From Gammaproteobacteria bacterium (GTDB taxonomy: Bacteria > Pseudomonadota > Gammaproteobacteria > UBA4575), in assembly GCA_965222615.1 (NCBI GenBank), contig CBDCUI010000009.1, positions 224,001 through 288,000 of the forward strand: 64,000 bases of DNA. Direction: 5' to 3'. Of this stretch, positions 29,654-48,981 are shown piece after piece. Made by a program: the position numbers and the translations under genes. Positions within the stretch are counted from its first letter, which is position 1, and every line of letters starts with the position of its first letter. Under the pieces are notes generated by a model. The model saw only the letters and a list, made by a program, of their open reading frames with translations, ran no database searches and was not told where the DNA came from.

Positions 29654-29677
29654 CCCAACTTCTGCCTAATTGTTGGG
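29654..29677 (+). other. 24-bp inverted-arm recombination-like site s1 (CCCAACTTCT gcct AATTGTTGGG)
   Basis: Same 10-4-10 layout as s2-s5; homology to the right element ends here. Confidence 0.6.
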
Positions 29678-29787
29678 TAATGATCTTAATACCCATATAA
29701 TGTCCGCTAACGACCCAATGTATGGACACCTCCAAGCTAAGCAATTAGTTTGTGTGGTGTTAGAAACACAAAAGAAGGAGTCCATAC

Positions 29788-31085: not shown

Positions 31086-31106
31086 CAAAGCGGACAAATA
31101 TAAATT

Positions 31107-31304
31107 ATGCTTTGTGATTATATACTTTGGTTTCTTATGGCCGCTTTTCTGATCGTGGTTTTAAAGCACAGTTATGTTTTATATATGTATTTAGTCAGAA
31201 AAGAAAGCATATCTATGACAGATAGTGCATCTAAGGTCTATTCGCTATTACTGTTATTAGCGGTTGCCCTGAGCTTGATTTGCCAATTAAACATTATTGA
31301 TTAA
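31107..31304 (+). CDS. Small two-TM hypothetical protein (cassette-like ORF between palindromes)
   Basis: 65-aa hydrophobic ORF filling the interval between two palindromic sites almost exactly. Confidence 0.55.
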   Translation: MLCDYILWFLMAAFLIVVLKHSYVLYMYLVRKESISMTDSASKVYSLLLLLAVALSLICQLNIID

Positions 31305-31311
31305 ATGTCCG

Positions 31312-32735: not shown

Positions 32736-32816
32736 CTATTGGACGAAAGCAGACATAATTGAGGACAAATCAGGTTGGAATCAACAAACTACAAACATAA
32801 AATGACTGCTTACGAC

Positions 32817-34047
32817 TGCCGATTCAATTGATCACCGCAACACTTTATCTTAAGTAACAAAAAAGATGGAGTGTGAAGGATGGGCTATCGAACACGCATT
32901 TATTATAGCGAAGCACAAAAACAGGTGATGTGGGATCGCTGGCAGCAAGGTGATTCTCTCCACACTATTGCGCGCCTTTTTAATCGTGGGCACTCATCGA
33001 TACGACGGATACTTGCAGAAACAGGTGGCATTCGCCCTCCTCAACGAACACGATCAGGCTTCGCACTGACGTTATCGGAACGCGAAGAAATTTCTCGTGG
33101 ACTCGCACGGAATGTATCTTTGCGATCGATTGCTAAACAACTAAAGCGTTCACCTTCCACCATCAGTCGCGAGATTCAGCGCAATGGCGGCATTGCGACA
33201 TATCGCGCGAATGAAGCGGAACAAGCTGCGTGGGATCGGGCGCGCCGTCCTAAAACGTGTAAACTCGCTAGGAACAAAGACTTGTGTCATGCCGTAGCAA
33301 CCAAGTTGCAATTACATTGGTCGCCGGAGCAGATTGCGGGTTGGTTAAAACGCACCTATCCTAATGATGAGAGTAAGACCGTGTCGCATGAAACGATTTA
33401 TCGCAGTTTGTTCATTCAAGCCCGCGGAACCCTGAAAAAAGAGTTACTTGCGTATCTGCGCACGCAACGGACTTTACGTCAGTCAAAGAAAGCCAGTTTG
33501 AAAAACCAAGGCTTAGGTCAAATTAACCATGCGGTCTCCATTCGACAACGTCCGGCATCGGTGGAAGATCGTGCCGTACCGGGACATTGGGAAGGTGATC
33601 TCATTGCAGGCTCAAACAACAGTTATATTGCCACCTTGGTCGAACGACATACACGCTATGTCATGCTAGCCAAAGTAAAGAATAAAGACACGAAGAGTGT
33701 CATCAATGCACTTATCAAGCAAGCGAAGAAATTGCCGAATGAGCTCTACAAATCGTTAACCTGGGATCGCGGTAAAGAGATGGCCGATCATCAACGCTTT
33801 ACCTTAGCGACCGAAATCAAAGTCTACTTTTGCGATCCACAAAGTCCGTGGCAACGGGGTTCAAATGAAAATACAAATCTACTACTTAGACAGTACTTTC
33901 CAAAAGGAATGGACCTGTCTAACATTCATCAGAATCGATTGAATGCAGTAGCAAGACAATTAAACGAACGACCTAGGAAAACACTAGAATTTGAAACACC
34001 AGCAGAAAAATTTAACCAATGTGTTGCAGCGATCGGTTGAGATCGCA
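32817..34047 (+). mobile_element. IS30-family element with 2-bp TSD (AC), inserted in a palindrome
   Basis: IRs TGCCGATTCAATTGATCACCGCAACAC / GTGTTGCAGCGATCGGTTGAGATCGCA; reconstructed target TGACTGCTTACGACCCAAAGCGGACA. Confidence 0.9.
32880..34040 (+). CDS. IS30-family DDE transposase
   Basis: WSPEQI, SHETIY, GHWEGDL, TWDRGKEM, PWQRGSNENTN. Confidence 0.95.
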   Translation: MGYRTRIYYSEAQKQVMWDRWQQGDSLHTIARLFNRGHSSIRRILAETGGIRPPQRTRSGFALTLSEREEISRGLARNVSLRSIAKQLKRSPSTISREIQRNGGIATYRANEAEQAAWDRARRPKTCKLARNKDLCHAVATKLQLHWSPEQIAGWLKRTYPNDESKTVSHETIYRSLFIQARGTLKKELLAYLRTQRTLRQSKKASLKNQGLGQINHAVSIRQRPASVEDRAVPGHWEGDLIAGSNNSYIATLVERHTRYVMLAKVKNKDTKSVINALIKQAKKLPNELYKSLTWDRGKEMADHQRFTLATEIKVYFCDPQSPWQRGSNENTNLLLRQYFPKGMDLSNIHQNRLNAVARQLNERPRKTLEFETPAEKFNQCVAAIG

Positions 34048-34081
34048 ACCCAAAGCGGACATTTCTAACAATCATAAATAC

Positions 34082-34683
34082 ATGACTAAAACGAAAATAA
34101 TTGTATTAAGAATTTTAGCTATACTAGCTATAGTTGAAATACTAATTTTAGTATTCGCTGGATTTCAGCAAATATCGGGCACTAAAGAATTATTTGAAAG
34201 CTTTGAAGGTCCACTTCCACTAATAACAACTGTTTATCTAGTACATAAAAGTGTAGAAGAGGTTAGGCGAGATTCGCTTCGATATAAATATTGGATTCAA
34301 TTTCTGTTTGCTAAACTGGCGGTGTCCATATACTAAAACGAAAATAATTGTATTAAGAATTTTGCTATACTAGCTATAGTTGAAATACTAATTTTAATTC
34401 GCTGGATTTCAGCAAATATCGGGCACTAAAGAATTATTTGAAAGCTTTTCCACTTCCACTAATAACAACTGTTTATCTAGTCACGTATAAATATTGGATT
34501 CTACTGGCAATATTCCCTCTATTTATTTTTGTTAAATCGTTTAGGGAAAAATTTAAATCACGTAATTCATCAAGTCCATTTGTTTCGTTGCTTATTGCAT
34601 TTATTATTATTGGGATACTAATATTTGTAGGAATTATATTTGCAATGTATGCGCCTATTTGGGAATTGTCTAATAAGGCTTAA
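34082..34683 (+). pseudogene. Membrane-protein cassette with GspF/PilC-like motifs, interrupted by a scrambled duplication
   Basis: Joining 34082-34240 to 34481-34683 gives a contiguous protein of about 120 aa (...LFESFEGPLPLIT...IFAMYAPIWEL). The intervening DNA is IS110 end fragments plus an indel-ridden copy of the gene's 5' part. Confidence 0.5.
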
Positions 34684-34704
34684 GTGATGATATTTTTATG
34701 ACCG

Positions 34705-36112
34705 TATATGGCCTCCCTCCGTTTGCAAGCAAAATATTCAATGACAAAGTAGAGTCGACTGCACACGTATATTCGGCCTCTATTGATAGCAAGCGTTGAT
34801 GCTGGGCCAGGATGGTGTATTCGCACCTAAGCACCCAATCGCTATTACGTACTCGAAGTACCTGGACATTCACGGGTTACGCTTAGGTCGGTTCGACCGG
34901 TTTGCCATCTAATAAATTACTTTGCAATCGTGGTAGATAATCCTCTTAAGTGTAAGTACATGTAATTTCGTTAATTGTTTTATTTCACATAAGCGCAAAG
35001 TTCGGATCATATTCACTTTCATCTCGCAACATTGCAAATGCCATACGCACGGTTTTATTCGCCAGTGCGACAGCGGCCACATTCGTATGTTTGGTTTTAG
35101 AAAGATGCGTGACCCACTGACTCAATCGATCCTCTTTATGTTTCGCTTGCGAGACGACAGCCCTTGCTCCGTGAATGAGTAAGGTGCGCAGATAGGCATC
35201 GCCGCGTTTACTGATTTCCAGTAAACGCTCTTTATTGCCTGAACTGTGTTGTCTGGGGGTTAAGCCTAAGGCTGCCGCCATCTGGCGACTGCTCTTGTAT
35301 TGTTTGGCATCGCCTACCGTGGCAATCAATGCTGTGGCCACCATCGGCCCGACCCCTCGTAGCTGTTGTAGACGCTTGGTGACTTCGTTTTGTTTGGCCT
35401 GTTGTTCAATCGTTTGATCAAGTTCTTTTACACGCGCATCTAATGTTAGTACGTCATGTTGAAGTCCCTGTAGTAAAGAACGAAAGTGTGGCGTTAAGCC
35501 ATTCTCTCCGTCTTCTAACCAAGTCGGTATTGCAGCGCGTAATCGATGTAACTGTTGGGGTGCGACTAAGCCATATTCACTCACTAAGCCTCGAATCTGA
35601 TTGGCTTTAGCGGTGCGTTGTTGCACCAAAGTATTACGCACACGATGCAGGGCCTGAATGTCTTGCTGTTCAATACTTTTGATCGTGACAAAGCGCATGT
35701 TGGGGCGACTCATGGCTTCGCAAATGGCTTCGGCATCGTTGGCATCATTCTTGTTGCTCTTTACATAAGGCTTTACAAACTGGGGTGCAATCAATTTCAC
35801 CACATAGCCTCGTTGTTGTAATACACGAGCCCAGTGGTGTGCACCCGAACAGGCCTCCATGCCAATCTCACCACCCGGTTCAACATGCTCCACTAATACC
35901 TTAAGCCACTTGCTTCGAGATAAGCGTCGTTTGAATACGCACTTTCCCGTGCGATCCACCCCGTGTAGTTGAAAAACATGCTTTGCCAAATCCACACCCA
36001 TGCGTGTAATCTTGTTCATGTATGGTCTCCTTTATTCAAAGTAACTGGTTCTATCGCTTCCAGTATGGGCACATTACGATGCCGTTTAAAGTTGAGGGAG
36101 GCCATACCATTG
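34705..36112 (-). mobile_element. IS110/IS1111-type element B, copy 2
   Basis: Transposase identical to copy 1; reconstructed target TATGACCG|CTATTGGCCGAAAGCGGACAT. Confidence 0.9.
34985..36019 (-). CDS. IS110-family transposase
   Basis: Protein identical to that of 31608-32642. Confidence 0.95.
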   Translation of the reverse strand: MNKITRMGVDLAKHVFQLHGVDRTGKCVFKRRLSRSKWLKVLVEHVEPGGEIGMEACSGAHHWARVLQQRGYVVKLIAPQFVKPYVKSNKNDANDAEAICEAMSRPNMRFVTIKSIEQQDIQALHRVRNTLVQQRTAKANQIRGLVSEYGLVAPQQLHRLRAAIPTWLEDGENGLTPHFRSLLQGLQHDVLTLDARVKELDQTIEQQAKQNEVTKRLQQLRGVGPMVATALIATVGDAKQYKSSRQMAAALGLTPRQHSSGNKERLLEISKRGDAYLRTLLIHGARAVVSQAKHKEDRLSQWVTHLSKTKHTNVAAVALANKTVRMAFAMLRDESEYDPNFALM

Positions 36113-36163
36113 CTATTGGCCGAAAGCGGACATCAAGGTTAGCCAATGAAGAGAATAGGGCGC

Positions 36164-36187
36164 GTTAACTTTTTAATAATAGTTGGG
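36164..36187 (+). other. 24-bp site s2 (GTTAACTTTT taat AATAGTTGGG), the empty allele
   Basis: Left arm and spacer match s4; right arm and downstream sequence match s3. Confidence 0.65.
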
Positions 36188-36235
36188 GAGTCATAGATTG
36201 GCCGAGAGGGGATTTATATAGTTCTTTATTTTATA

Positions 36236-36652
36236 ATGTATGAATGGGAATTAATGCTGCTAAAAAAACGTGCCAAAGAACGTGGTCGAATTGCTAGGCA
36301 AGAGCTCTTACTGGCCGACGGTGGCTGCATTAGTGCCGCGGATGCTGCAAAGCAACTGGGAATCACGGAGGTAGAGCTTGAGAGAATCCGTAGTTCTAAT
36401 CAGTTATTGGCTGTTGATGTTGATAGCAAGTTTCAATATCCGATTTGGCAATTCGAGGGAGCAAATTTAGTTCCCGGATTACAAGAAATATTAGAAATAC
36501 TTGGCGATGATGATCCGTGGTCGAATTTCATCTTTTTGTTGGGTCACGACTATGCAGTAGATGGATGTCGTCCAATCGACAAACTTCGTGTAGGTGATAT
36601 TGATTCAGTCAAACGCGCTGCACATACGTACGGTCATCATGGTGCAGTTTAA
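36236..36652 (+). CDS. HTH + Xre/MbcA/ParS-like antitoxin-type protein (left copy)
   Basis: AADAAKQLGIT HTH, YPIWQF, DGCRPIDKL. Comparison with the right copy suggests a true start at 36244 and an extra A in an A7 run. Confidence 0.6.
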   Translation: MYEWELMLLKKRAKERGRIARQELLLADGGCISAADAAKQLGITEVELERIRSSNQLLAVDVDSKFQYPIWQFEGANLVPGLQEILEILGDDDPWSNFIFLLGHDYAVDGCRPIDKLRVGDIDSVKRAAHTYGHHGAV

Positions 36653-36675
36653 ATAAAGCAAATAATAGGTAATTT

Positions 36676-36858
36676 ATAAACAATTCAATTCAACGCATAC
36701 CTGGAATTGCTGGAAGCAAACCATTGCTCAAGTGTGTATGCGTCCCCACAAAAATAATTGCAGAGCGATTTAAAGCCGGCGAATCAATTAGTGCGCTTGC
36801 AGTGGACTATGGTTGTAGGAACACAGAAATAGAAGAAGCGATTAGATTCGAACTTTAG
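36676..36858 (+). CDS. DUF433-like small protein (no canonical start codon visible)
   Basis: IQRIPGIAGSKP...IIAERFKAGESISALAVDYG...IEEAIRFEL; the diverged mirror copy keeps the frame with many synonymous changes. Confidence 0.55.
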   Translation: MNNSIQRIPGIAGSKPLLKCVCVPTKIIAERFKAGESISALAVDYGCRNTEIEEAIRFEL

Positions 36859-36879
36859 TCACAAATCTCCCGAAATAAA

Positions 36880-36992
36880 CCTGAATTCCAGGTACTTACT
36901 TTTACTCCCGAACTTACACTCAAGTACCGAATTTTACTCCTGGGGGACTGATGTTTACTCCCGAAAAGTGCTGGGTATTACTAGGAATTACA
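36880..36992 (-). repeat. Tn7-like transposon end (terminal TGT plus tandem TnsB-type binding sites)
   Basis: Reverse complement reads TGTAATTCCTAGTAATACC followed by several GGAGTAAA repeats; homologous to the end at 37110. Confidence 0.8.
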
Positions 36993-37037
36993 ATAGTCTC
37001 GAACCGATAAGGTGATTAACCATCTGGTTAATCGTTT

Positions 37038-37065
37038 TCTTAACATAATATATATTATGCGAAGT
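37038..37065 (-). other. dif: XerC/XerD dif site
   Basis: Minus strand ACTTCGCATAA-TATATA-TTATGTTAAGA has the 11-6-11 layout and matches the dif consensus (E. coli GGTGCGCATAA TGTATA TTATGTTAAAT). Confidence 0.88.
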
Positions 37066-37244
37066 TAAATATGTGGGTGCCTAATAGAATTTGACGTCTC
37101 TTAAACATGTGTGATTCTTAGTAAAACCAAGCACTTTTCAGGACTAAAAGTCAGTACTTCAGGAGTAAAACTAAGTACTTGAGTAATTAATAAGACTAAA
37201 ACTAGATACCTGAATTCATGATCTATTTCTAAAGATTTGTGACT

Positions 37245-37427
37245 TTAAAGTTCGAATCTGATGGCTTCTTCGATATAAGAGTCTTTACAGCCGTAATCCA
37301 TAGCCAGCTCAGTAATCGATTCGCCGGCTTTAAATCGCTCTGCAATTATTTTTGTGGGGACGCATACACACTTGAGCAATGGTTTGCTTCCAGCAATTCC
37401 AGGTATGCGTTGAATTGAATTGTTTAT
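37245..37427 (-). CDS. DUF433-like small protein (mirror copy)
   Basis: ...AGESITELAMDYGCKDSYIEEAIRFEL*; homologous to 36676-36858. Confidence 0.55.
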   Translation of the reverse strand: MNNSIQRIPGIAGSKPLLKCVCVPTKIIAERFKAGESITELAMDYGCKDSYIEEAIRFEL

Positions 37428-37450
37428 AAATTACCTATTATTTGCTTTAT

Positions 37451-37858
37451 TTAAACTGCACCATGATGACCGTACGTATGTGCAGCGCGTTTGACTGAAT
37501 CAATATCACCTACACGAAGTTTGTCGATTGGACGACATCCATCTACTGCATAGTCGTGACCCAACAAAAAGATGAAATTCGACCACGGATCATCATCGCC
37601 AAGTATTTCTAATATTTCTTGTAATCCGGGAACTAAATTTGCTCCCTCGAATTGCCAAATCGGATATTGAAACTTGCTATCAACATCAACAGCCAATAAC
37701 TGATTAGAACTACGGATTCTCTCAAGCTCTACCTCCGTGATTCCCAGTTGCTTTGCAGCATCTGCGGCATTAACGCAGCCACCGTCGACTAGCAAAAGTT
37801 CTTGTCTGGCTATTCGACCACGTTCTTTAACACGCTTTTCTGCAGCACTAATTCCCAT
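37451..37858 (-). CDS. HTH + Xre/MbcA/ParS-like antitoxin-type protein (right copy)
   Basis: Near-identical to 36236-36652, with an intact N-terminus. Confidence 0.65.
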   Translation of the reverse strand: MGISAAEKRVKERGRIARQELLLVDGGCVNAADAAKQLGITEVELERIRSSNQLLAVDVDSKFQYPIWQFEGANLVPGLQEILEILGDDDPWSNFIFLLGHDYAVDGCRPIDKLRVGDIDSVKRAAHTYGHHGAV

Positions 37859-37910
37859 CTCAGTATTATAAAGAATTAATCAAGTCCCCTCTTCGTTGTA
37901 TGTATCACTC

Positions 37911-37934
37911 CCCAACTATTGCACAAAAGATGGG
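37911..37934 (-). other. 24-bp site s3 (CCCATCTTTT gtgc AATAGTTGGG), junction of the recombinase module
   Basis: Right arm and continuation AATAGTTGGGGAGT are identical to s2. Confidence 0.65.
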
Positions 37935-38055
37935 GAGCGAATCATACATATTAACTATCTGTTTTATAATAATATTTTCAATTATTTTGTTGAAAAAATA
38001 ACATAACTAGAGTAAATTTCTCACCAACTTTTTGAGTAATAGATAAATAGTTGGT

Positions 38056-38706
38056 ATGTTAGAAACATCAACATCCGAAGTGAAAAACTTCAATCACCCA
38101 GCTCCTGGGTCGACCATAAAAGTCGAACCAATTCGAACTGTTCAAGCGATTCACAAAATTAAAACCATGCTTGAACCTAATCCGCGTAACTATTGTTTAT
38201 TCGTTCTTGGGATTAATACCGCATTTCGAGCTTCTGAATTACTTTCAATAAAGATTGGACAGGTTAAATATTTAAATCCAGGAGATCGGTTAGAAGTTAA
38301 ACAACCAAAAACGAAAAAGTATCGATCCGTGACAATCAATCAGTCAGCTCATGATGCGATACGTCGATTAATTATAGAAAAAGATATAGAAGCTCTCAAA
38401 AAAAGAAACTTGAATATCTCTGATGACGATGCATTTCTATTTACTGGCCAACGCGGATCGTCAGCTCTTAAGGTTTCAACTTTAAACAATATGGTTAAGG
38501 ATTGGTGTAGAAAAGTTAATCTGAAAGGTAATTTTGGTAGTCACACTCTACGAAAAACCTGGGGATTTATGCAGCGCAAGAAGCAAGACACCCCTATTCC
38601 TTTATTGATGCAAGCATTAGGTCATGCAACTCAAAGACAGACTATGGAATATTTATGCATTCAAGAAAAAGAAATTGAGAATGTTTATACAGCAATGGAA
38701 CTATAG
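38056..38706 (+). CDS. Small (catalytic-domain) tyrosine recombinase
   Basis: Catalytic residues present: R (NTAFRASELL), K (QPKTKK), HxxR (SHTLRKT), H (LGH), Y (TMEYL). Confidence 0.9.
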   Translation: MLETSTSEVKNFNHPAPGSTIKVEPIRTVQAIHKIKTMLEPNPRNYCLFVLGINTAFRASELLSIKIGQVKYLNPGDRLEVKQPKTKKYRSVTINQSAHDAIRRLIIEKDIEALKKRNLNISDDDAFLFTGQRGSSALKVSTLNNMVKDWCRKVNLKGNFGSHTLRKTWGFMQRKKQDTPIPLLMQALGHATQRQTMEYLCIQEKEIENVYTAMEL

Positions 38707-38827
38707 TAGTGGCTAGGATTTATACAACCTTTCAAAGCTATATATTATTCTATGATGTATCCATATACTTTATATAGAATAATGTTACGTTTACTCCTAA
38801 TGGTGGTGCGCATAATGAGGGTTAAAA

Positions 38828-39832
38828 ATGGCACACGGTAGATTGCTCAGACAACTCATTCGTGCTGGTGTTAATGCGCCCGGAGAAGAATTTCGTGAGG
38901 TAGCCGAAAAGGTTATTCGCGAAGAACGTGAAAAAAAACATCATTTACTAGCTAATGATCTAGAACGGATTCTGTACGGCGAAAGTAATGATGAAGCACG
39001 TACCCTCTTACCACTATCGCTACCTGAAGTGCCAAAGGATCGAGAGCGACATATACCACTTTTAGAAATTCGCGAACCAGTTCGTTCTTTCGCAGACATT
39101 GTTCTTACCAAAGACAACCGTGAGATACTCGAACATGTTTTGCAAGAACAGGGACGGCGTGATGTGCTTGGCTCTTATGGTTTGAAACCTGCCAATCGTT
39201 TACTATTCTGCGGGCCACCTGGATGTGGAAAGACCTTAGCTGCAGAAGTATTAGCGACCGAGCTTGGTTTACCACTACTCTTAGTGCGCTTTGATGCGGT
39301 TGTGTCATCCTATCTTGGTGAAACTGCAGCAAATTTACGAAAAGTGTTTCAGTACCTTGAAACTGGACGTTATGTTGTTTTGTTTGATGAGTTTGATGCG
39401 ATAGCAAAAGATCGTGCGGACGCATCTGAGCATGGTGAATTACGAAGGGTTGTAAATGCATATCTGCAAATGATGGATAGCTATCGTGGCAATTGTTTGT
39501 TACTTGCCGCATCAAACCATGAAGGTTTACTTGATAAAGCCCTTTGGCGACGATTTGATGAAGTACTTTTCTATCGTCGCCCAACAACAGAAGAAATTAT
39601 TGATTTGGTTGCTGTAAAACTTCGAGGTATTCGCTATAACTTTGAAACAGAAAACGAACCGACTATCGCTAACTTCAATGGGATGGCGCACGCTGACATT
39701 GAGCGTGTATTGATCCGCGCAATTAAACATATGATCTTATCGGGTCGTGAATTTTTAAGCACTGACCACATCGCACTTGCCCTAGAACGAGAACGGGAAA
39801 GACGATCTGTCGCTGAACATAAGTCGATTTAA
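38828..39832 (+). CDS. AAA+ ATPase (IetA-like partner of an S8 protease)
   Basis: GPPGCGKT, SSYLGETAANL, LFDEFDAI, LDKALWRRFD. Confidence 0.85.
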   Translation: MAHGRLLRQLIRAGVNAPGEEFREVAEKVIREEREKKHHLLANDLERILYGESNDEARTLLPLSLPEVPKDRERHIPLLEIREPVRSFADIVLTKDNREILEHVLQEQGRRDVLGSYGLKPANRLLFCGPPGCGKTLAAEVLATELGLPLLLVRFDAVVSSYLGETAANLRKVFQYLETGRYVVLFDEFDAIAKDRADASEHGELRRVVNAYLQMMDSYRGNCLLLAASNHEGLLDKALWRRFDEVLFYRRPTTEEIIDLVAVKLRGIRYNFETENEPTIANFNGMAHADIERVLIRAIKHMILSGREFLSTDHIALALERERERRSVAEHKSI

Positions 39833-39837
39833 CAGTA

Positions 39838-42147
39838 ATGGTAGATCGACTACCGCATCTAAGAATGGCTCGAGCAGAGCCGATTAACGAACGACGCCGA
39901 CGACCAGGATTTGGACCTGGGCGGCCTAAAGACCCTGGTCGTCACGCCCAAGAGTTAAAAGAAAACCTTGATGAGCATAAAGACTCACCAGAAAACGAAT
40001 TAGCTGGTTTCGATCCGCGCCACTTACTCAAACTCGAAATCGAAGGCATTGCTGGTGATGAGCTTTCAAACATTCCAGAATTCAGTGTCGTTACTGAAGA
40101 AGGGAGTAACGTAACTGTGTTGTTTGCTACGGAAAGCGCATTGAAAGAATTTCGTAGTCGATTAGAACAACTTGAAGCAGGTAATCGTGCGACACGTGAG
40201 CAAATATTATTTGCAGTTAAGGGATTTGATTATATTACTGCGGATGATCGCCGAGGCCCCCGGTTAAGCACGGATGGAACGCCAAACAAAGAGCTTTTCA
40301 TACTGGATGTTGAACTTTGGGCGCTTGATCTTCGTAATGAACGAGATGCGATGATCGAATATTTCGTTGAGTTTTGTCATCAATCTAATATTGACATTCG
40401 TGATCAAGTTAATCATCCATCGCTTGTTTTGTATCGTGTAGAAACATCTTCTGATGGTCTAAACAAATTACTTAACATGCGTGATGTAAGGCGTGTTGAC
40501 TTACCCCCTCAATATGAATTTGAGATGGAGTTACTTGATGCGACGGTGAACTCATTACCAGAAATTAAACCACCACCCGACAACGCACCCACCATAGCAA
40601 TATTAGATTCAGGAATAGCCAGTGCTCACCCACTTTTAGAGCATGCTGTTGGAGACGCTCAATCATTTGTTGACGAAGATCCCATCGACCTTGTTGGCCA
40701 CGGTACTACAGTAGCAGGTCATGCTTTACTTGGTGATGTAGCAACTGTCGCTCAAAGCGCAACGCATACCGCTGAACTTCGAATACTCAGCGGTAAAATT
40801 GGTCAAGGCCGAGATGATGTAACTTTGATTGAAAATCGCATTATTGAGGCGGTGCAATATTTTAAGGAACACTATAATTGTAGAGTGTTCAACCTATCTA
40901 TCGGTGTTTATGCTCGCCCTTACCTAGGCGGACACGTTGATAGACTTGCAGCTACTATTGATTGGTTATCTCGTGAGTATCAAGTGCTGTTCATTGTCTC
41001 GACGGGTAATATCCATTCAAGTGTGCAAGGGCCAGCCAATTGGCGAGAAGGTTACCCACGCTATTTGTTGGAAGATGAATTTCGCTTGTTAGATCCTGCT
41101 CCAGCATTGAACGCAATAACAGTAGGCGCATTAGCTAATTATGAGGTCGCCCGAATGGCTGCACGTAATCCTGACGATCCTTCATATCAACCTATTGCGC
41201 ATCGTGATCAACCATCACCCTTTACGTTGTGTGGTCCAGGTCCAAATGATGCAATAAAGCCAGATTTTGCCGACTACGGTGGTAATCGTTATATTGATTC
41301 ACGCCAAGCACCGCGACCATTAGCAGGAAATGAATTAGGTGAGCTCGGATTAAGTAATAAATTTGCCACTGGAAACTTGTATAGAGTTTCAGTGGGCACA
41401 AGTTTTGCTGCACCTCGTGTTGCACACTGTGCTGCACATATATTACGTCAGTATCCCGATGCGTCACCGTCGCTTCTTAGGGCGTTGTTGGCTGCTCATT
41501 CAACTGTGCCTACTTCCACAGCGGATTTGGATCTAGACAAATCAGAGGTACTACGTCTTGTTGGATACGGTAAGCCCAACAAAGAATATTCACTGTATTC
41601 CGAAAACAATCGCGTTACAATTTTGGCCGAAGAGACACTTGCTCCTAATGAACATCACTTCTACCAACTTCCTATGCCGGATGATCTTTTTAAGTCTCCT
41701 GCTCGTCGACCTCGACGAATTACTGTTGCTCTCGCACATACGCCACGAGTTCGACGAACGCGTTTAAAATACCGGGAAAGTGAGATGTCTTTTCGAATAA
41801 TTAAAGCCGAGAGCCTTGAATCCGTGACTCAAGCTTATCGGAGGCTGCGGAAAGATGAGAAAGAAGATCTAATTCCGGAAAGTGATTTCACACCAGGCCC
41901 TACGCTGCGTGAAGGTGGTTCATTGCAGTGTGCTACACGCATACTTGGTCAAGTGGATGAGCGATACCGAAGAAAACCATACTTCTTAGTTGTAACCAAT
42001 AATGTACCAGATTGGGTTAGCTCAATTGATTCGGAGCCTTATTCGCTTGTAATCGTTATTGAAGATCAATCAGACGTTGAAGTAAATCTATATACGCAAA
42101 TCCAATTAGAGCTACAAGAGCGTGTGCGCACACAGGCTCGGAATTAA
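39838..42147 (+). CDS. S8 subtilase-family serine protease (IetS/Y4bN-like)
   Basis: Catalytic triad ILDSG, GHGTTVA, GTSFAAP; GYGKP; no signal peptide; coupled to the AAA gene. Confidence 0.88.
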   Translation: MVDRLPHLRMARAEPINERRRRPGFGPGRPKDPGRHAQELKENLDEHKDSPENELAGFDPRHLLKLEIEGIAGDELSNIPEFSVVTEEGSNVTVLFATESALKEFRSRLEQLEAGNRATREQILFAVKGFDYITADDRRGPRLSTDGTPNKELFILDVELWALDLRNERDAMIEYFVEFCHQSNIDIRDQVNHPSLVLYRVETSSDGLNKLLNMRDVRRVDLPPQYEFEMELLDATVNSLPEIKPPPDNAPTIAILDSGIASAHPLLEHAVGDAQSFVDEDPIDLVGHGTTVAGHALLGDVATVAQSATHTAELRILSGKIGQGRDDVTLIENRIIEAVQYFKEHYNCRVFNLSIGVYARPYLGGHVDRLAATIDWLSREYQVLFIVSTGNIHSSVQGPANWREGYPRYLLEDEFRLLDPAPALNAITVGALANYEVARMAARNPDDPSYQPIAHRDQPSPFTLCGPGPNDAIKPDFADYGGNRYIDSRQAPRPLAGNELGELGLSNKFATGNLYRVSVGTSFAAPRVAHCAAHILRQYPDASPSLLRALLAAHSTVPTSTADLDLDKSEVLRLVGYGKPNKEYSLYSENNRVTILAEETLAPNEHHFYQLPMPDDLFKSPARRPRRITVALAHTPRVRRTRLKYRESEMSFRIIKAESLESVTQAYRRLRKDEKEDLIPESDFTPGPTLREGGSLQCATRILGQVDERYRRKPYFLVVTNNVPDWVSSIDSEPYSLVIVIEDQSDVEVNLYTQIQLELQERVRTQARN

Positions 42148-42233
42148 AGTTTCGAATTTCTGCGTGCAAACTCTATGATGAAATCGACAAGATATGCAGT
42201 ATCGTTTTTAACCATACCACACGTATTTTCACC

Positions 42234-42257
42234 CCCAACTTTTATTAAAAAGTTAAC
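42234..42257 (-). other. 24-bp site s4 (GTTAACTTTT taat AAAAGTTGGG)
   Basis: Lies within the inverted repeat 42234-42302 of 36118-36187; bounds the recombinase-AAA-S8 module. Confidence 0.65.
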
Positions 42258-42302
42258 GCGCCCTATTCTCTTCATTGGCTAACCTTGATGTCCGCTTTTG
42301 GC

Positions 42303-42552
42303 TGTGGTCTCAATAGGTCGATGCAACACTTTGAAATAGAGTGAAAAAAGGCTGCAAAAGCTAAGAGAAATGCAATTACATCAACATCTTAAGAGTAGAT
42401 CAATAAAAGATGGCTCGAAGCAAGTAATAATGCAGTATTTAATGTAACCGGTTCATCCAAAAACAACTCAACACTAAATGGTCATCCGTTTGAGTCAACC
42501 TCTTTATTACTAAAAGTTTAGCAAGGTGTTGCATTGACCGATTGAATCGGCA
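42303..42552. mobile_element. 250-bp non-autonomous IS30-ended element in a palindrome
   Basis: Ends TGTGGTCTCAATAGGTCGATGCAACAC and GTGTTGCATTGACCGATTGAATCGGCA resemble the IS30 IRs at 32817/34047; no transposase. Confidence 0.75.
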
Positions 42553-42589
42553 GTCGTTAGCGGACATTATATGGGTATTAAGATCATTA

Positions 42590-42613
42590 CCCAACAATTA
42601 GGCAAAAGTTAAT
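42590..42613 (-). other. 24-bp site s5 (ATTAACTTTT gcct AATTGTTGGG)
   Basis: Overlaps the 58-bp inverted repeat 42553-42610 of 29657-29714; lies just downstream of tniQ. Confidence 0.6.
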
Positions 42614-42651
42614 AGATAATTATTCCTGAATTTCTTTGTACGACCCTCATA

Positions 42652-44238
42652 TTAGAATGAACCATGCACGTGCATAGATCTTTCGACTATTTCATCCCTG
42701 CCTTTTTGTTTTACATCGCTCAAATTAACTAGTATTGGTAGGAATGTTAAGTGTTCGTATACGATCTTATTATTAGTGATGTCAATAAAAGATAGCGTTT
42801 TTGCAAAATTGAGTTTATTTAGATCGCGCTCCAAGTTATCTGAATGCACCCATATTTGTTCACTCAAAGAAACTAACCATACAAATTGTAAATAAAGTTC
42901 TGCAAGGTATTGCCACAACCATTCTTTGGTAAACCGATAGACAAAGGGTCGATTATTAAAATGCATGCATTTACTATCTTCAGACCATAATAATTTTCCT
43001 GGACCGTTTTCTGACCAATCCATCCATACCGATGAATCCAAATAATGTGATGCGTAGTCCTCTACATTAATTATTTGCCCTTGCGGAAATACACATTTTT
43101 GCCAAAGCGAATATGCAGTACACCATAATGACGTAGCTTTAGATAATTTGACACTACAAAACTTATTACAGTGAAACATAGTCCCTGACTTACGACTTGA
43201 ATAATCAATATGCACTTTCAATTCCTGATCAAACGACTTTATGAAGGATGTTATAAATTGAGTGAGGTGGTTATAAGTCCGTAATTTGGGGAATCTTTCT
43301 ATCAAATTTTTACCGTTTAGGTATTCTTTAGTAAGAGTTCTATCACGTAGAATCTCCTTGTAATTTTTTACGTCATACTTATCGAAACAACCCACATCAC
43401 ATGAAAGTGGATAAAATTCCCTAGTAGGGATATTTATTTTTGATTTCAAGTACGTGGTTTTTGAAGTTCTAACATTTCCAACGTTAACTAAACAAGTCTT
43501 CACCCAATCCGGACCAGCTGAAAAATGATGTAAATAGGCTAAATTTGCATAGTCGACACAACCCTTCAGCCAAATCCGAACAGAATTGGAAGGGTTATTG
43601 AGTTCCTCGGCTTTGTTAATCCAATATCTATATTCTTCTATTATTTTCTTGCGTTCTAAAATATCTGTGCCGACTCTATATCTATCTATATCCCAAAAAT
43701 TTGTTCCACACTTAATGTTAGGGCAACTATATATTTGTAAGAAAGCATTCGTAACTTTATATTTATGTAAATAGCTCCCACATTTTATACAGATAGTAGT
43801 TAATGGAGCGTGATGAATTGGGCAGTGACTCCATGCGAGAATTTGATGGAAAACAAGATGTGTGCCCCGCTGGACACATTGAGGACAAATGCGTAAATGT
43901 TTTGATAAATTTAATGGATTGTTAATAGAGATTGTTGATTTATAGGCACAGATGTTTTTGATATTCGAGGAATAGTATTCTCCACACGATGCCTCTAACC
44001 AATCACTCTTCCAACCAGTCAGCTGCAGAATTCGTTTTACGTTAAAATTACGAACGTCGTCTGGATAGGTGCTTATATCGCTAATGTAATCCGACGCATA
44101 ACTTTTTCGAGTTCCAAAGTTTCTTTTAAAGTCTGACCAATCAAAATGATTTAATATTGCTAGCTTCGCTGTAATAGACCACAGAGTCTCACCTATTGGA
44201 TTCCATTCTTGAGCACCAATCAGGCTACGGCTATTCAT
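42652..44238 (-). CDS. tniQ: TniQ/TnsD-family target selector
   Basis: PIGETLWS N-terminus; zinc-finger CPQC...HQ..WSHCPIH...CIKCG...CPNIKCG; long C-terminal extension; last gene of the tns operon. Confidence 0.8.
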   Translation of the reverse strand: MNSRSLIGAQEWNPIGETLWSITAKLAILNHFDWSDFKRNFGTRKSYASDYISDISTYPDDVRNFNVKRILQLTGWKSDWLEASCGEYYSSNIKNICAYKSTISINNPLNLSKHLRICPQCVQRGTHLVFHQILAWSHCPIHHAPLTTICIKCGSYLHKYKVTNAFLQIYSCPNIKCGTNFWDIDRYRVGTDILERKKIIEEYRYWINKAEELNNPSNSVRIWLKGCVDYANLAYLHHFSAGPDWVKTCLVNVGNVRTSKTTYLKSKINIPTREFYPLSCDVGCFDKYDVKNYKEILRDRTLTKEYLNGKNLIERFPKLRTYNHLTQFITSFIKSFDQELKVHIDYSSRKSGTMFHCNKFCSVKLSKATSLWCTAYSLWQKCVFPQGQIINVEDYASHYLDSSVWMDWSENGPGKLLWSEDSKCMHFNNRPFVYRFTKEWLWQYLAELYLQFVWLVSLSEQIWVHSDNLERDLNKLNFAKTLSFIDITNNKIVYEHLTFLPILVNLSDVKQKGRDEIVERSMHVHGSF

Positions 44239-44250
44239 TATTTGATAATG

Positions 44251-45240
44251 TTAATGTGCTGTACGTACAACTAGATCTTTAATCTGTTCAATTGCTACAT
44301 GGCTGATAGCATCTTCGATGAATCTCTTTTCCAATTGAAGTGACATATCATCTTGTTCTGGCAATGCTTTTAGTATCCAACGTAATAACGCTGAGATCGG
44401 TTGTAGAGGAATTTCATCAAATTTTGCAATATGTTCAGCTCTGCACATCTCCATAAGAGAATCCCAAATTAATTCTGCCGAATCTAATAAACGCCAGCCT
44501 GCGTCATAAGCTTGTGGAGCAAAATACCTTGTATAGGAGCATCCCGACCCAGGAGGATATTCTGAATGTGAATCGAGCATTTTTATTATGCGTCTAAAAT
44601 CTCTTTTGTCGGCAATGCCTTCAAATCGATGTGTCGCAGTCATGAATCGCCCAAGCAATTGTTGCTTTCCTGAACTTCTGAAATTGTTTTTTATATCTAT
44701 TAATTCTGGTTGACCGACTAGCACTGTCACTAAACGCACGTCTTTCATTTTCAATGAATTATGAAGATCCATAAGATATTCATATTGTGTTAAATCTAAC
44801 CATTCTGCTTCATCAATAAATAAAAGATAACGATGTTCACGCGTTTGAAAGGCACGCTCAACCATAAAATCAATACAACGTCTGCGCTTTATTCTTGCGG
44901 CTTTAGAATCAATTAATGAATAATTTAGTGCTTGCAGCATCTCATCAAAGAAGCGTAATTCAGTAGTACTACTTTGTGATGGTTGCCACATGCTCAACAT
45001 CGTAGTTGGAATTGGGCTTCCTAAAACTTCTTCACAATTATCAACAATGTAACGAATTGCTTGAGTCTTCCCTACCCTTTGATTTCCCCACACTAAACCG
45101 CCTGGTAAAAGTTTATCCAACCAAACTAGAATTGCATTTACGAATTCTTCTAATGGACGCGTCGGAATAATTGCTGCATCACGCAATATTGGGTGATCGT
45201 CAATAAACTCTACTCTCTCGTTATTATGCTTTCTTTCCAT
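44251..45240 (-). CDS. tnsC: TnsC/TniB-like AAA ATPase
   Basis: Walker A GNQRVGKT, Walker B LFIDEAE, LVGQPEL, GRF. Confidence 0.82.
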   Translation of the reverse strand: MERKHNNERVEFIDDHPILRDAAIIPTRPLEEFVNAILVWLDKLLPGGLVWGNQRVGKTQAIRYIVDNCEEVLGSPIPTTMLSMWQPSQSSTTELRFFDEMLQALNYSLIDSKAARIKRRRCIDFMVERAFQTREHRYLLFIDEAEWLDLTQYEYLMDLHNSLKMKDVRLVTVLVGQPELIDIKNNFRSSGKQQLLGRFMTATHRFEGIADKRDFRRIIKMLDSHSEYPPGSGCSYTRYFAPQAYDAGWRLLDSAELIWDSLMEMCRAEHIAKFDEIPLQPISALLRWILKALPEQDDMSLQLEKRFIEDAISHVAIEQIKDLVVRTAH

Positions 45241-45252
45241 TGTGTTTATATG

Positions 45253-47148
45253 CTATCGAGTTGTATGTACTTTATTTAATGAAACCCAGTTCTCGTGTTT
45301 CGTAGGTATATTCTGTTTTTCTTGTTTTAGTTTGTTGAATTCTGTTGAGGAGTGCTGCAAATGCAGAAGTCGGTTTCTATCTTTTCTATATTTATTGGCG
45401 CGTTTATTGAGAAAGTTCATGTAGTCTGATAACGGTGTGAGCGTGTCAGAATATAAACGCTTTTGCTTTATAAGTTTTAAAATTGCACATCTTATTTTTA
45501 AGCTATGTGGATAGATCATCCAGCGTTCTTCTGCTTCAAGACGACCTATACATTTGCCATTTTCTAAAAACAGTAACCCTGTGCGTATGTCTTTAATGTT
45601 TACGCGAAATGTTGCACGTTGATTTGTATATTGAGTATTAATTCTTAAGAAGTCACTGGAATATCTCACTCCTTTGAATTTTATATAGGGTCGGTGCTGA
45701 TGCTCACGACTTGACCGTATCGTGACAAAATAATTTCTTTCAAATAAGGGAATATTATCCGGTTGTTGATTTGTTAGATATCGTGGTATATCCCCTGCTC
45801 GATCAATTCGATAACGGATGTATTCAAGTGGCGTGCGACCATTCAGACTGGTGTGAGGGCTCGCATTATAGTTTGCGATAGCGACATCTGTAACGAGTTC
45901 AAGGTTTTCATACTCGATTAAGAGTTTTTTTGCTTGCTGTGTTGCGTTTCTTCTTCTCGGATCTTGTGGATTTGAACCAGTTGTATTTGGCCATCTATGT
46001 AAAGATGCTTCTTCAAACGTCCTCATGAATCTTTCAATTATTGAATTAGATCGAGGTCGTCGAGCTTTATTGCTGATGATCTCTATTGCACCCGTTGAGA
46101 TAATTCTGTTTTGTAGCCAACTAGAAATATTTGCATATGCATTGTCTAGTTGGACAACATCAAATGATCTCCAAGCGCATTTATCAATAACACCAGATGG
46201 CAATCCCGCATTTCGCTTGTAATGAATAACGCCGTTGGTATTTTCTTTTGGTAACCACGGTGTGAATGAACTTGCTATGCATTCTAGCAAGTCTTCCATA
46301 GTGTAATTTTCCGATAAGCTTAAGCTATAACCAAGAATCGCCCTGCTCGACACATCAATTAGTACGAGCAACCAAATTCTAGAAAGCGGTAGTTCTTGTT
46401 CTTCACCAAATTGGTCTTTGATGCGGATGATTAGTTCAGCATCAAGGCGATGTGCATCAAACTGCACCTTATTATATGGTTTTAGTATTGGGACAGCGTT
46501 ATTTAAGCAGATATGATTTGTAGTGATCGATTGGATGTTATCGCCAAACTCAGCAATCGCTCCTTCAATAAAATTCTCTTTTTGAACTTTTCTGCAATAG
46601 TTACGAATTACCTCTCTACCACCGTCACGATTACTGAAGGGATAATCCAATTCGGTATCAATGCCTTTTGCTGTACAATTATCTTTAAAAGCTTCCCAAA
46701 TGATTTTAGTATTTCTACCGCGCACATAGCACTCATCTATTTTTTTCTTTCCTAATGCCCATCCTTTAAGGCTATCTTCAAGATTTGGATATTGACGTAG
46801 AAATTGACTAAATAATCCAGCATGCCCAGTTAACTTGTTGGTTGTACGCTCATACTTTTTAAATCGAAAATTTGGGATACAAGCTGTATACCCCCACGGA
46901 TCTCCATCTGGCGATACGTCAAAGGCACGTTTAAGAATTCGTATTAACTCTGATTTAGATAATCCGCATTTATAAAGTATTTTTTCTATTGACAAATCGG
47001 ATGATAAATATAGGTCAACAGCACGTTTTCTACGATTAAATTTCGCTTTTTTAGCAGCAGAAAATGAACTTACATCAACCGGAAGCCAGTTGTTTGGCTC
47101 TAAGTCTTTTGATAGATGATTATTTTCAAGACATAGTTTCCTGATCAT
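45253..47148 (-). CDS. tnsB: TnsB-like DDE transposase
   Basis: VQFDAH, LIDVSSRAILG, LDNA, IERFMRT, YNASPHTSLNGRTP. Confidence 0.88.
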   Translation of the reverse strand: MIRKLCLENNHLSKDLEPNNWLPVDVSSFSAAKKAKFNRRKRAVDLYLSSDLSIEKILYKCGLSKSELIRILKRAFDVSPDGDPWGYTACIPNFRFKKYERTTNKLTGHAGLFSQFLRQYPNLEDSLKGWALGKKKIDECYVRGRNTKIIWEAFKDNCTAKGIDTELDYPFSNRDGGREVIRNYCRKVQKENFIEGAIAEFGDNIQSITTNHICLNNAVPILKPYNKVQFDAHRLDAELIIRIKDQFGEEQELPLSRIWLLVLIDVSSRAILGYSLSLSENYTMEDLLECIASSFTPWLPKENTNGVIHYKRNAGLPSGVIDKCAWRSFDVVQLDNAYANISSWLQNRIISTGAIEIISNKARRPRSNSIIERFMRTFEEASLHRWPNTTGSNPQDPRRRNATQQAKKLLIEYENLELVTDVAIANYNASPHTSLNGRTPLEYIRYRIDRAGDIPRYLTNQQPDNIPLFERNYFVTIRSSREHQHRPYIKFKGVRYSSDFLRINTQYTNQRATFRVNIKDIRTGLLFLENGKCIGRLEAEERWMIYPHSLKIRCAILKLIKQKRLYSDTLTPLSDYMNFLNKRANKYRKDRNRLLHLQHSSTEFNKLKQEKQNIPTKHENWVSLNKVHTTR

Positions 47149-47887
47149 GAGAACTGGATTTTATTATTGTTTTTATTGTTAATGGGTATGTGTCTAAATC
47201 AGATGAAAGTACCCCTTTGTGTAAATGTTTTGCTAAACAAGCAATAATATGCTGAGATTCAGACGCGCAGAGATTGATGATTTTCTCAAGGGTTATTTCT
47301 TTGTAGTTCTTACAAAGTTCCAAAACCTCTCTTTCAAGCAAAGGATCTGGGCTCTTATAGGCGTTTCTTGCATGTGAGAGCAGCTCACGCCAATTAAAAA
47401 TTAGAATTTTGTCTTTCTCTAAATTTTTATTAGTTATAAATTCACATCTGTAGCCATTTTCACTTCCCCACCTCTCAATTAAGTTCCAATCTTTGGGTCT
47501 AGTTGTTCCAGAATTGTCCTTCCTAAGAGAGGCTTCATTGAGAACTTCATAGAATACTTCTTGTTTTGACTTAAAGGTGAAACTTAAATCAAATGTGTAG
47601 TGAGGTTTGTTTCTTAGAGGCGCTTCTATCCGCAGTGGTCGCTCGCATAATTTTGTTATTGAAGGTTCCGCTTCTGCTTTTATGATTGCATCAGCAATTA
47701 GATCTCCGGCGACACAGACTTCTCTCATACCAGCCTTGATACTAAAAATGCGATGATATCTGCAGTTAATTTGTTTTTTTAGAGGCAATAAATGCGGGCC
47801 TCTAAACATTTTAGCTTCTATAAAACGTGCTGAATTGAAGTTCTCAGTGGATAAGTTGTTCTTATTATTTGCAACTACATCAGTCAT
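47126..47887 (-). CDS. tnsA: TnsA-like endonuclease
   Basis: FSIK...EAEPSITKLCERP...HYTFDL...FYEV PD-(D/E)xK-like pattern with a C-terminal wHTH-like region; overlaps the tnsB start. Confidence 0.7.
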   Translation of the reverse strand: MTDVVANNKNNLSTENFNSARFIEAKMFRGPHLLPLKKQINCRYHRIFSIKAGMREVCVAGDLIADAIIKAEAEPSITKLCERPLRIEAPLRNKPHYTFDLSFTFKSKQEVFYEVLNEASLRKDNSGTTRPKDWNLIERWGSENGYRCEFITNKNLEKDKILIFNWRELLSHARNAYKSPDPLLEREVLELCKNYKEITLEKIINLCASESQHIIACLAKHLHKGVLSSDLDTYPLTIKTIIKSSSHDQETMS

Positions 47888-48169
47888 AAATTTGTAAACT
47901 AATAAAGATGACTGTTCTAAATTAATAAATAATTACTATCTCAATCAACATAAAATTGTCTTGTAATATCAAGATTTTGATCTGTTATGTTTCTTAACTA
48001 ATTATGTTAGCCGTGTATAGCATTGTGAACACACACTATATGTAGTGGGTAGCATTGTTTTACTATCGCTTTTTTCATGAATTTTAGGAAATTTTGCATA
48101 TTTTAAGAATATATGTAAAAAAATGGTTGTATAAATAATCTAATATTTCGATCGTTTTAGATCAAAATT

Positions 48170-48565
48170 TTGTTTAATATTTTGTATATGGGAAGAGACT
48201 TAAAAGTACTCGGCGAAAACATAACGTTACTGCGTAAACGTTTATGTTTGAAGCAAGACCAGTTGGCTGAAATTGTTGGAACTTCCCAGTCACAAATTAA
48301 TGCGCTCGAAAGCAAGAAAACTTGTAATCCTGGTTATTTCATTGTTGAAGCATTAGCAGATTTTTTTGGTGTTAATAACTGGGATCTTGTTCATAAGCGT
48401 CTGGTGAACTTGAGTCCGAAAGAGCAACTTATTAATAGAGTAAGAACAAACACATCTGACAGTGATTTTTTACAAATTAAGCATCTAGTAGATGGTCAGC
48501 ATCTTGAATACGCGAAAAGCGGTAAATTTCGCTACGAGTATCGCCAGATAAAGAAAAGTAACTAG
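48170..48565 (+). CDS. XRE-family HTH regulator inside the transposon
   Basis: LGENITLLRKRLCLKQDQLAEIVGTSQSQINALE...NP; divergent from tnsA. Confidence 0.8.
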   Translation: MFNILYMGRDLKVLGENITLLRKRLCLKQDQLAEIVGTSQSQINALESKKTCNPGYFIVEALADFFGVNNWDLVHKRLVNLSPKEQLINRVRTNTSDSDFLQIKHLVDGQHLEYAKSGKFRYEYRQIKKSN

Positions 48566-48981
48566 AAAATAGTGTCCTGTAATTCAAGCATCGACTTTTA
48601 CTACGAAGTTTCCCCAAAATCTGATTTTTAGTCCTGTTTCTTCACGTCTAAATTAGTCCTCGAATTGGACTGATTTCAATAATTACAATAATTTAGGACT
48701 GTTTCTTAGTGTTCGGTATTACTAGGAACTACAACATGCCCTATACCAGAAAGTTACTTTTAAGATTACTCTGGTTACCATGATACGTGACTACTTATTA
48801 GATAGGCTTTCTATTACCTAATGGCTACACAAAGTCGAATATTGTTTTAGAAAAATATCGTATCTTAATGAATTTATTAGAATTATATTTTTAAGAATAA
48901 CTGGCCTTATCCCACGATTAATATATTCTAATTCTATTAGTAAAATTATATATTAGAATCTTCTAATATTATTAATATTTT

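Follow-up and report, generated by a model that had tools for sequence, protein, structure and literature searches.

The question raised by this locus is whether a Tn7-like transposon can choose its landing place by dif, the dimer-resolution site of the bacterial chromosome. In a 64,000-bp stretch of a Gammaproteobacteria genome (C9:224001-288000 of the assembly; hereafter the window), a complete Tn7-like element begins 44 bp from one arm of dif, and the homologous end of a second, decayed element lies 45 bp from the other arm in inverted orientation. An earlier note on this DNA had attributed the arrangement to a candidate family of dif-targeting transposons. Our analysis makes dif-directed insertion the best single explanation of the mirrored geometry, with a probability that we put slightly above even; the existence of a family of such elements is not supported by the sequence comparisons.

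The dif site and the two insertions beside it

The features on which the argument rests are these, in window coordinates.

37038-37065, minus strand: chromosomal dif (XerD arm 37038-37048, spacer 37049-37054, XerC arm 37055-37065)
37110-48733, minus strand for the transposition genes: complete Tn7-like element of 11,624 bp with TGT...ACA termini (the right element)
37105-37109: target-site duplication ACATG, dif-side copy
48734-48738: target-site duplication ACATG, far copy
37110-37215, plus strand: dif-proximal (tnsA-distal) end, with the terminal repeat and closely packed AGGASTAAAA-type repeats at +31, +52 and +83
48585-48733, minus strand: tnsA-proximal end, with the terminal repeat and spread-out repeats at +74, +99 and +129
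36119-36992, minus strand: contiguous part of the left remnant, comprising its end (TGTAATTCC... inward), a frame presumably DUF433-like, orf138 (36236-36652) and 70 nt matching 42233-42302
36993-36997: ATAGT, the would-be duplicated target of the left element, which has no second end for comparison
29657-36118: rest of the left remnant, broken by insertion sequences
31305-32756 and 34698-36133: IS110-family copies in the left remnant, 98.7% identical
29788-30831: another IS110-family gene in the left remnant
32796-34062: full IS30-like element in the left remnant

Read on the minus strand, the 28-bp site is ACTTCGCATAA-TATATA-TTATGTTAAGA, with half-sites identical at 8 of 11 positions and a palindromic spacer. 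It is the sole match in the 3.1-Mb, nine-contig assembly when up to six substitutions are allowed. It lies at C9:261038, on the maximum of the cumulative GC skew (a plateau at about 250-300 kb), and the octamer GGGNAGGG, which we take to be of the KOPS (FtsK-orienting polar sequence) type, switches polarity there: nine forward and no reverse copies are found to the left, two forward and 22 reverse to the right. Skew and octamer polarity both place the terminus at dif. All five related genomes searched carry dif or a close variant at the syntenic spot, three of them (G014, G007 and G004) having the family consensus ACTTCGCATAATATATATTATGTTAAAT and the remaining two (G001 and G017) a variant. 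The unique match, the skew maximum, the KOPS switch and the synteny together identify 37038-37065 as the chromosome's dif, and the intact site seen in the earlier note stands. The xerD and xerC genes are intact and lie elsewhere in the host genome.

The site is empty in G014, G007 and G004, where dif lies directly between homologues of the window genes at about 13.9-20.1 kb and of the 207-aa gene at 48982. To the left of dif, G017 has the homologue of a different window gene. Relatives thus show dif unoccupied and next to the 207-aa gene, which makes the right element a simple insertion. It starts 44 bp from the XerC arm and has the Tn7-like hallmarks of TGT...ACA ends, subterminal repeat arrays and a 5-bp duplication. 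The complete element with its ACATG duplication is therefore much as it was first described, except that its end is at 48733; the 48738 given previously includes the duplication. Most features expected of a Tn7-like element are present, the exceptions being the catalytic triad of TnsA and a below-threshold score for TniQ, both discussed below.

The left remnant terminates at 36992, 45 bp from the XerD arm and in inverted orientation. Its positions 36992-36178 align with 37110-37920, at the tnsA-distal end of the right element, with 88.8% identity over 820 nt, and the diverged homologous end that had been claimed for this side of dif is thus real. Identity varies along the end, being 81% in the terminal 75 nt, 73% in the next 51 nt and 94% in the following 594 nt. 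Further inward, 36188-36119 matches 42233-42302 (97%), 34062-34017 and 32846-32796 match the IS30-like repeats of the right element at 42288-42333 and 42523-42573, and 29714-29657 matches 42553-42610 (98%). Overall, the interiors are collinear and 94-98% identical as far as 29657, the equivalent of 42610 and about 40 bp short of the tniQ stop codon. These collinear pieces indicate that the left copy once had the same backbone up to that point. It now lacks the segment with the recombinase and the IetAS genes (37921-42232 in the right element) as well as tniQ, tnsC, tnsB, tnsA and the far end. The genome as a whole holds three ends of this type, two of the right element and one of the left remnant, and no further end and no second TnsB or TniQ were found genome-wide. 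In three sequencing runs of the same organism, all from one study, the fragmentary contigs contain no alternative junction; one of the runs (X3) has no cover over 36504-38255, a gap that carries no weight.

The mirrored geometry is precise. The centres of the 5-bp targets lie 56.5 bp (left) and 55.5 bp (right) from the centre of dif, and the alignment of the left end to the right element confirms that the tnsA-distal end faces dif in both copies, as had been noted before. Read outward from dif, the 45- and 44-bp flanks agree at 10 of 44 positions, as compared with a mean of 11.9 after shuffling. The flanks being unrelated, dif is the only feature common to both insertions. Furthermore, the 8 of 11 identical half-site positions and the palindromic spacer mean that a single mode of recognition could occur in either direction.

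Several other observations concern the surroundings of dif. A near-perfect 20-bp palindrome, GATTAACCA-TC-TGGTTAATC, occupies 37014-37033, 4 bp outside the XerD arm; the dif flanks of the five relatives showed no such palindrome. To the left lies a 2840-aa open reading frame (ORF; 20620-29142) with tandem repeats of 405-423 nt; its homologue in the sister species, G001, lies on the opposite side of dif (L035:16591-19899, 83% amino acid identity in the best tblastx segment). In the same species an unrelated 8.3-kb island (L035:4511-12812) separates dif, on its XerC side, from the 207-aa gene. The island encodes Imm33-like, Sel1 and transglutaminase-like proteins and a Y1 (RAYT-type) transposase fused to a DnaA-C helix-turn-helix (HTH). 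We considered TGTAGTTTC, 40 bp from dif in G001, as a possible element end. Its alignment score is no higher than the shuffled mean for two of the three ends and, for the third, slightly above the mean and far below the shuffled maximum; the resemblance is attributed to chance and the island is not Tn7-like. Within the left remnant, the IS110-family copies are placed at, or inside, the inverted repeats that terminate the IS30-like element (29657-36188), and the right element has a pair of IS30-like repeats with no transposase (42233-42610). This arrangement suggests IS110 members that target IS30 ends.

Transposition proteins and cargo of the right element

The genes and other features of the right element are listed below.

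47126-47887, minus strand: tnsA homologue, 253 aa, with the catalytic E replaced by I, K by L, and D kept
45253-47148, minus strand: tnsB DDE transposase, 631 aa, with a match to rve_3
44251-45240, minus strand: tnsC/tniB-type AAA+ regulator, 329 aa, with a match to AAA_22 (1e-11)
42652-44238, minus strand: tniQ, 528 aa, with a TniQ core, zinc-finger Cys/His residues and an essentially unique C-terminal half
48170-48565, plus strand: HTH regulator, adjoining the tnsA-proximal end and conserved in part of the family
38056-38706, plus strand: small plasmid-type tyrosine recombinase, 216 aa, with R..K..HxxR..H..Y apparently intact
38828-42147, plus strand: anti-phage cargo, IetA (38828-39832) and IetS (39838-42147)
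37246-37858, minus strand: orf135 (37451-37858) and a frame without a start codon (37246-37450)
42233-42610: non-coding DNA containing IS30-like inverted repeats, a pair spanning 286 bp (42288-42573); pieces of the left remnant are collinear with it

The transposase is the most readily placed of these proteins. TnsB has 53 homologues (54 rows with the query) at up to 50% identity, and its profile matches solved TnsB structures (E 3.8e-7); every invariant column is kept. TnsC scores 22.1 bits against the TniB model, whose cut-off is 22.4, and is 45-54% identical to the neighbour protein of TnsB in 14 related loci. TniQ is encoded at the expected place among the transposition genes and gives a match to the PADLOC TniQ model (E 1.4e-6), and the Cys/His columns of its zinc fingers are invariant or nearly so across 38 relatives; its matches to solved TniQ and TnsD structures are weak ones in the zinc fingers (E 0.01-0.27). 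When TnsC and TnsA were compared with solved structures as single sequences, nothing useful matched. Domain and PADLOC scans of the element's genes revealed nothing like TnsE, leaving TniQ as the only selector. When host XerD and XerC were modelled in complex with residues 240-528 of TniQ, the score was 0.00 with the partner fold uncertain, a result of no weight either way.

The TnsA homologue is unusual. By itself the window protein matches no Pfam family, but PF08722 (TnsA N-terminal) is matched by 11 of the 14 members of its family, and a profile of all 14 matches the solved PseTnsA (E 3.3e-8) with the LE, D and K motifs aligned. At the positions that we take to be those of the catalytic E-D-K triad, the window protein is incomplete, with both E and K replaced. 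Two of its closest relatives are also degenerate, having Q and R (L055, 9280-9963) or K and S (L056, 51-791) at these places. The lysine is kept in 10 of the 14 aligned members; L062 has R, and a short piece from L007 aligns T. On this alignment the loss of residues looks like a trait of the lineage and not the decay of one copy, as if this were a line of structural but inactive TnsA proteins. Tandem pairs of TnsA-like frames occur upstream of tnsB in two related loci (L006, 8427-9137 and 9259-9966; L003, 8714-9274 and 9574-9948).

The cargo includes an anti-phage system, IetAS, both components of which are strongly matched by PADLOC (IetA, E 2.6e-93; IetS, E 1.1e-197). Beside it, the 216-aa tyrosine recombinase keeps the R..K..HxxR..H..Y residues in an alignment with XerH; its best named matches are XerA, XerC, XerD and XerH. 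It matches 907 plasmid records, in 897 of which one match covers at least 80% of the query. Given these intact-looking residues and so common a plasmid family, the protein is more likely a cointegrate resolvase than a target selector. A role as a dif selector in the manner of TnsF is less likely for a protein that looks catalytically intact, belongs to a plasmid family of about 200 aa and is absent from the left remnant.

Catalytic mutants of TnsA turn Tn7 replicative. A TnsA without two of its catalytic residues, together with a tyrosine recombinase carried on board, leads us to think that transposition here is probably replicative, with cointegrates resolved as in Tn5053. There are precedents: Tn7 relatives that lack TnsA are described as resolving cointegrates through a site-specific recombinase (PMC11406308), and tyrosine resolvases are said to be common in such clades (PMC8649781).

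The module around orf135 is common to the right element and the left remnant, at 94% identity. In both (37246-37858 and 36236-36857) an ORF of 135 or 138 aa is followed by a startless frame in another reading frame, and the two may form one frameshifted or recoded gene. The startless frame (37246-37450) and its left counterpart were taken by eye to be DUF433-like.

Relatives and comparable systems

If dif were the regular target of a group of elements, relatives might be expected beside it. The earlier note had called for homologues to be collected and their distance to dif measured; relatives were indeed collected, but none has been seen beside dif and their distal flanks remained out of view. 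No word-sharing homologue of the 528-aa TniQ was found among 5.8 billion clustered proteins, and TniQ is absent from all 55 other host-family genomes. An exhaustive phmmer search gave 285 relatives (query included) at E ≤0.001. The best 25 matches show 24-33% identity, mostly over residues 1-260 only; for the C-terminal half the best E-value is about 1e-11, at 23-26% identity. In a search of plasmids, the relatives of TnsB were no more than 32% identical, and no TniQ match extended over more than 40% of the query.

Loci related through TnsB were drawn from genome collections (6 of 15) and metagenome collections (21 of 26), with best-segment identities of 29-48% in the 26 full or near-full matches; those with TnsB at 25-27% or short matches (L008-L016 and L076-L080) were left out. 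Three of the loci examined (L005, L059 and L060) are one locus seen three times, at 99% identity, and give no boundary information. The tnsA-distal end was sought with an inverted-repeat search, blastn-short comparison of upstream with downstream sequence, scans for the terminal motif and a script for repeat clusters. Only L055 yielded it, at the very end of the contig; in the other related loci it was not found. Some relatives differ around tniQ: a KfrA_N DNA-binding protein is encoded next to it in L055, L057 and L002, as cargo just after tniQ, L055 has fragments of a tyrosine recombinase beside it, and L004 and L058 each have a second TniQ-like frame.

Taken together, a TniQ with no close relative, its absence from the 55 host-family genomes and the lack of any relative seen at dif mean that the family proposed in the earlier note finds no support in these comparisons. 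The essentially unique C-terminal half of TniQ also means that they do not weigh strongly against dif as the target of this one element.

Among known systems, the closest in anatomy are Tn7 and the Tn7-like elements whose TnsD or TniQ proteins recognise glmS, tRNA, ffs, parE, guaC, rsmJ, yhiN or comM. The right element resembles them in encoding TnsB, TnsC, TniQ and a TnsA homologue, in carrying defence cargo, and in its TGT/ACA ends, arrays of subterminal repeats and 5-bp duplication; like them, it lies beside the site and not in it. It differs in that the target would be a dimer-resolution site and not a gene, with insertion on both sides, and in having the tnsA-distal end inward and a TnsA without the catalytic E and K. 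The integrative mobile elements exploiting Xer (IMEX; CTXphi, TLC and others) also have dif as their landing place. These elements integrate by XerCD recombination within dif, using a dif-like attP and leaving no duplication, whereas the right element is flanked by a 5-bp duplication at a distance of 44 bp, and the genome contains a single dif-like site (up to six substitutions).

In its likely way of working, the right element most resembles the Tn5053/Tn402 'res site hunters', although it is not one of them. Those elements also have a single TniQ and a short TnsC of the TniB type, home on a resolution site and transpose replicatively with a resolvase on board (PMC11406308). However, Tn5053 lacks TnsA, encodes the serine resolvase TniR and targets plasmid or transposon res sites, whereas here a degenerate TnsA is kept, the recombinase is of the tyrosine type and the site is the chromosomal dif. 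Hunting of dif or pdif by a TnsB-like transposase is itself already known, from the IS1202 family (ISAjo2 and ISAba71), which has a TnsB-like DDE transposase, TGT/ACA ends and a 5-bp duplication and is found beside chromosomal dif or plasmid pdif (PMC10132070). IS1202 elements are about 1.5 kb long with a single gene, and insert in a single orientation and at the XerC arm alone, 5 bp away from it (PMC10132070); the present element has 11.6 kb and four transposition genes, and insertions occur 44-45 bp away at both arms. Finally, TnsF of Tn6022 shows that a recombinase-type DNA binder can serve Tn7-like targeting together with TniQ. TnsF, however, is catalytically dead, about 500 aa long, equipped with zinc fingers and directed to comM (PMC10293859), and the 216-aa recombinase looks active.

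Within the available portions of PMC11014353, PMC11406308, PMC10293859 and PMC8649781, dif is not among the attachment sites named. In agreement with the earlier note, no Tn7-like element targeting dif was found in the full-text literature searched, including bioRxiv 10.1101/2025.07.27.667033; the supplementary site lists of PMC10293859 and PMC8649781 could hold one, and subscription journals were outside the scope of the search.

Explanations for the mirrored geometry and their implications

On the reading that we favour, two related Tn7-like transposons would have inserted independently, by TnsB-catalysed DDE transposition, at a set distance from dif, one on each side, with the tnsA-distal end inward each time and dif left intact. 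TniQ would mark the target and nucleate TnsC, following the logic of Tn7 and Tn5053, and TnsC would place TnsB some 40-45 bp outward. The unique C-terminal half of TniQ may bind a dif half-site, or may dock on a recombinase bound there, and the near two-fold symmetry of dif would allow recognition in either direction and hence mirror-image insertions. The second insertion lies 117 bp from the resident element; given target immunity of the Tn7 type, the diverged termini could explain how the second element escaped it. The left element would later have been gutted by insertion sequences and a deletion. There are parallels: RNA-guided CRISPR-associated transposons (CASTs) have predicted integration 50-60 bp from the protospacer (PMC8649781), of the same order as the distances from dif here, Tn5053 is a TniQ element homing on resolution sites occupied by a recombinase (PMC11406308), and the transposases of the IS1202 family that home on dif or pdif are TnsB-like (PMC10132070).

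A number of points weigh against dif-directed insertion. Only two events are known, both from one genome, and for one of them there is just a remnant without a second end or duplication. The terminus region collects mobile DNA anyway, as the IS110 and IS30 copies and the 8.3-kb island of the sister species show. The TniQ score against PF06527 is 25.4 bits, where the cut-off is 27, and no DNA-binding domain could be recognised in the C-terminal half. A dif-like motif (at most three mismatches in 16 specified positions, or an exact inner palindrome) was found in none of the 27 loci with TnsB relatives, the two motifs listed being inside genes; the scan covered the tnsA-proximal flanks and up to 10 kb downstream and, the distal flank having been seen in no relative, says nothing about the true distal flanks. 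In G070, the genome with the relative L004, a perfect dif on another contig is unoccupied. Lastly, it is the tnsA-distal end that is turned towards dif. In Tn7 and the CASTs the target is faced by the end beside the transposase genes, and the polarity here is the opposite. The compact end of Tn7 is its target-proximal (right) end, and since the dif-proximal end is the compact one here, functional polarity may have been conserved while the gene block was flipped. The reversal relative to Tn7, the lost catalytic residues of TnsA and the gutted state of the left copy had all gone unremarked in the earlier note.

Polarity is also the basis for a different account, in which the sequence read by TniQ lies upstream of the 207-aa gene, to the right of 48738, and the position of dif on the other side is accidental. 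This would restore the Tn7 and CAST arrangement, and in the relative L005 a small gene does stop 18 bp short of the tnsA-proximal end. It would leave the end of the second element at the mirror position unexplained, however; the right flank is an AT-rich promoter region and not a conserved gene end, and it is the dif-proximal end whose repeats are packed like those of the target-proximal right end of Tn7. We regard it as very improbable. Only marginally less so is targeting of replication termination in the manner of TnsE, by which fork structure and not the dif sequence would be sensed and orientation would flip across the terminus. Fork-directed insertion does predict mirrored orientation on the two replichores, and Peters and Craig reportedly described TnsE-mediated insertion of Tn7 into the termination region in 2000. 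Yet TniQ is the only selector, with no TnsE-like gene present, and fork-directed insertion, being regional, would not give base-pair symmetry about a 28-bp site.

The left copy might instead derive from the right element through intramolecular replicative transposition, inversion or recombination, reducing the evidence to one targeting event. The collinear interior at 94-98% identity would fit such an origin, and a catalytically dead TnsA predicts replicative events able to make inverted copies. In the terminal 126 nt, however, identity falls to 73-81%, the opposite of what a recent duplication would leave, and neither of the 44/45-bp flanks is an inverted copy of the other. A recent inverted duplication, which the earlier note had named as fatal to its case, does not fit: the flanks do not mirror each other, and divergence is greatest at the termini. 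Even an intramolecular event would still have chosen a target 45 bp from dif. We think this derivation quite unlikely. Coincidence in a regional hot spot is likewise unlikely, though far from negligible: two related transposons would have landed in dispensable terminus DNA by other means, at distances that are equal by chance. Within 8 kb of dif there are three IS110-family genes and the IS30-like element, an unrelated island (with Imm33, Sel1 and a RAYT-type transposase) adjoins dif in the sister species, and no relative was found at a dif. Against this, TniQ-bearing Tn7-like elements are, as far as is known, site-specific and not regional, and by our own estimate two insertions falling in a dif intergenic region of about 300 bp would match in mirror image to within 1 bp only about 0.5% of the time.

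Dif-directed insertion is therefore where the geometry points, the flanks having no sequence in common, and that much of the earlier note's proposal survives, with the reservation that it concerns two events in one genome. A fuller claim, to which we give a little less than an even chance, is that the right element is the first Tn7-family 'dif hunter'. It would recognise dif through TniQ, alone or via Xer proteins, and insert about 44 bp outward of either arm while leaving dif working; with a dead TnsA, replicative transposition and tyrosine-recombinase resolution, it would be the equivalent, on the chromosome, of the Tn5053 hunters, and its landing pad would be nearly universal.

If the geometry is due to chance, the right element is a Tn7-like island of the ordinary kind, carrying defence genes and lying in the terminus region. 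A selector for dif would extend 'resolution-site hunting' from plasmid res sites to the chromosome. The locus is also of interest for how TnsC and TniQ set distance and polarity, in view of the two-sided mirrored insertion and the reversed polarity of the ends, and for the path from cut-and-paste to replicative transposition, in view of a degenerate TnsA paired with a tyrosine recombinase. Tn7-like elements are a source of programmable, site-specific tools for DNA insertion, and new selectors widen that toolbox. As dif occurs once in almost every bacterial chromosome and dif-like sites are present on many plasmids, where pdif or cer sites may be used as well, a selector that reads dif would, if the reading is true, open a very broad safe harbour.

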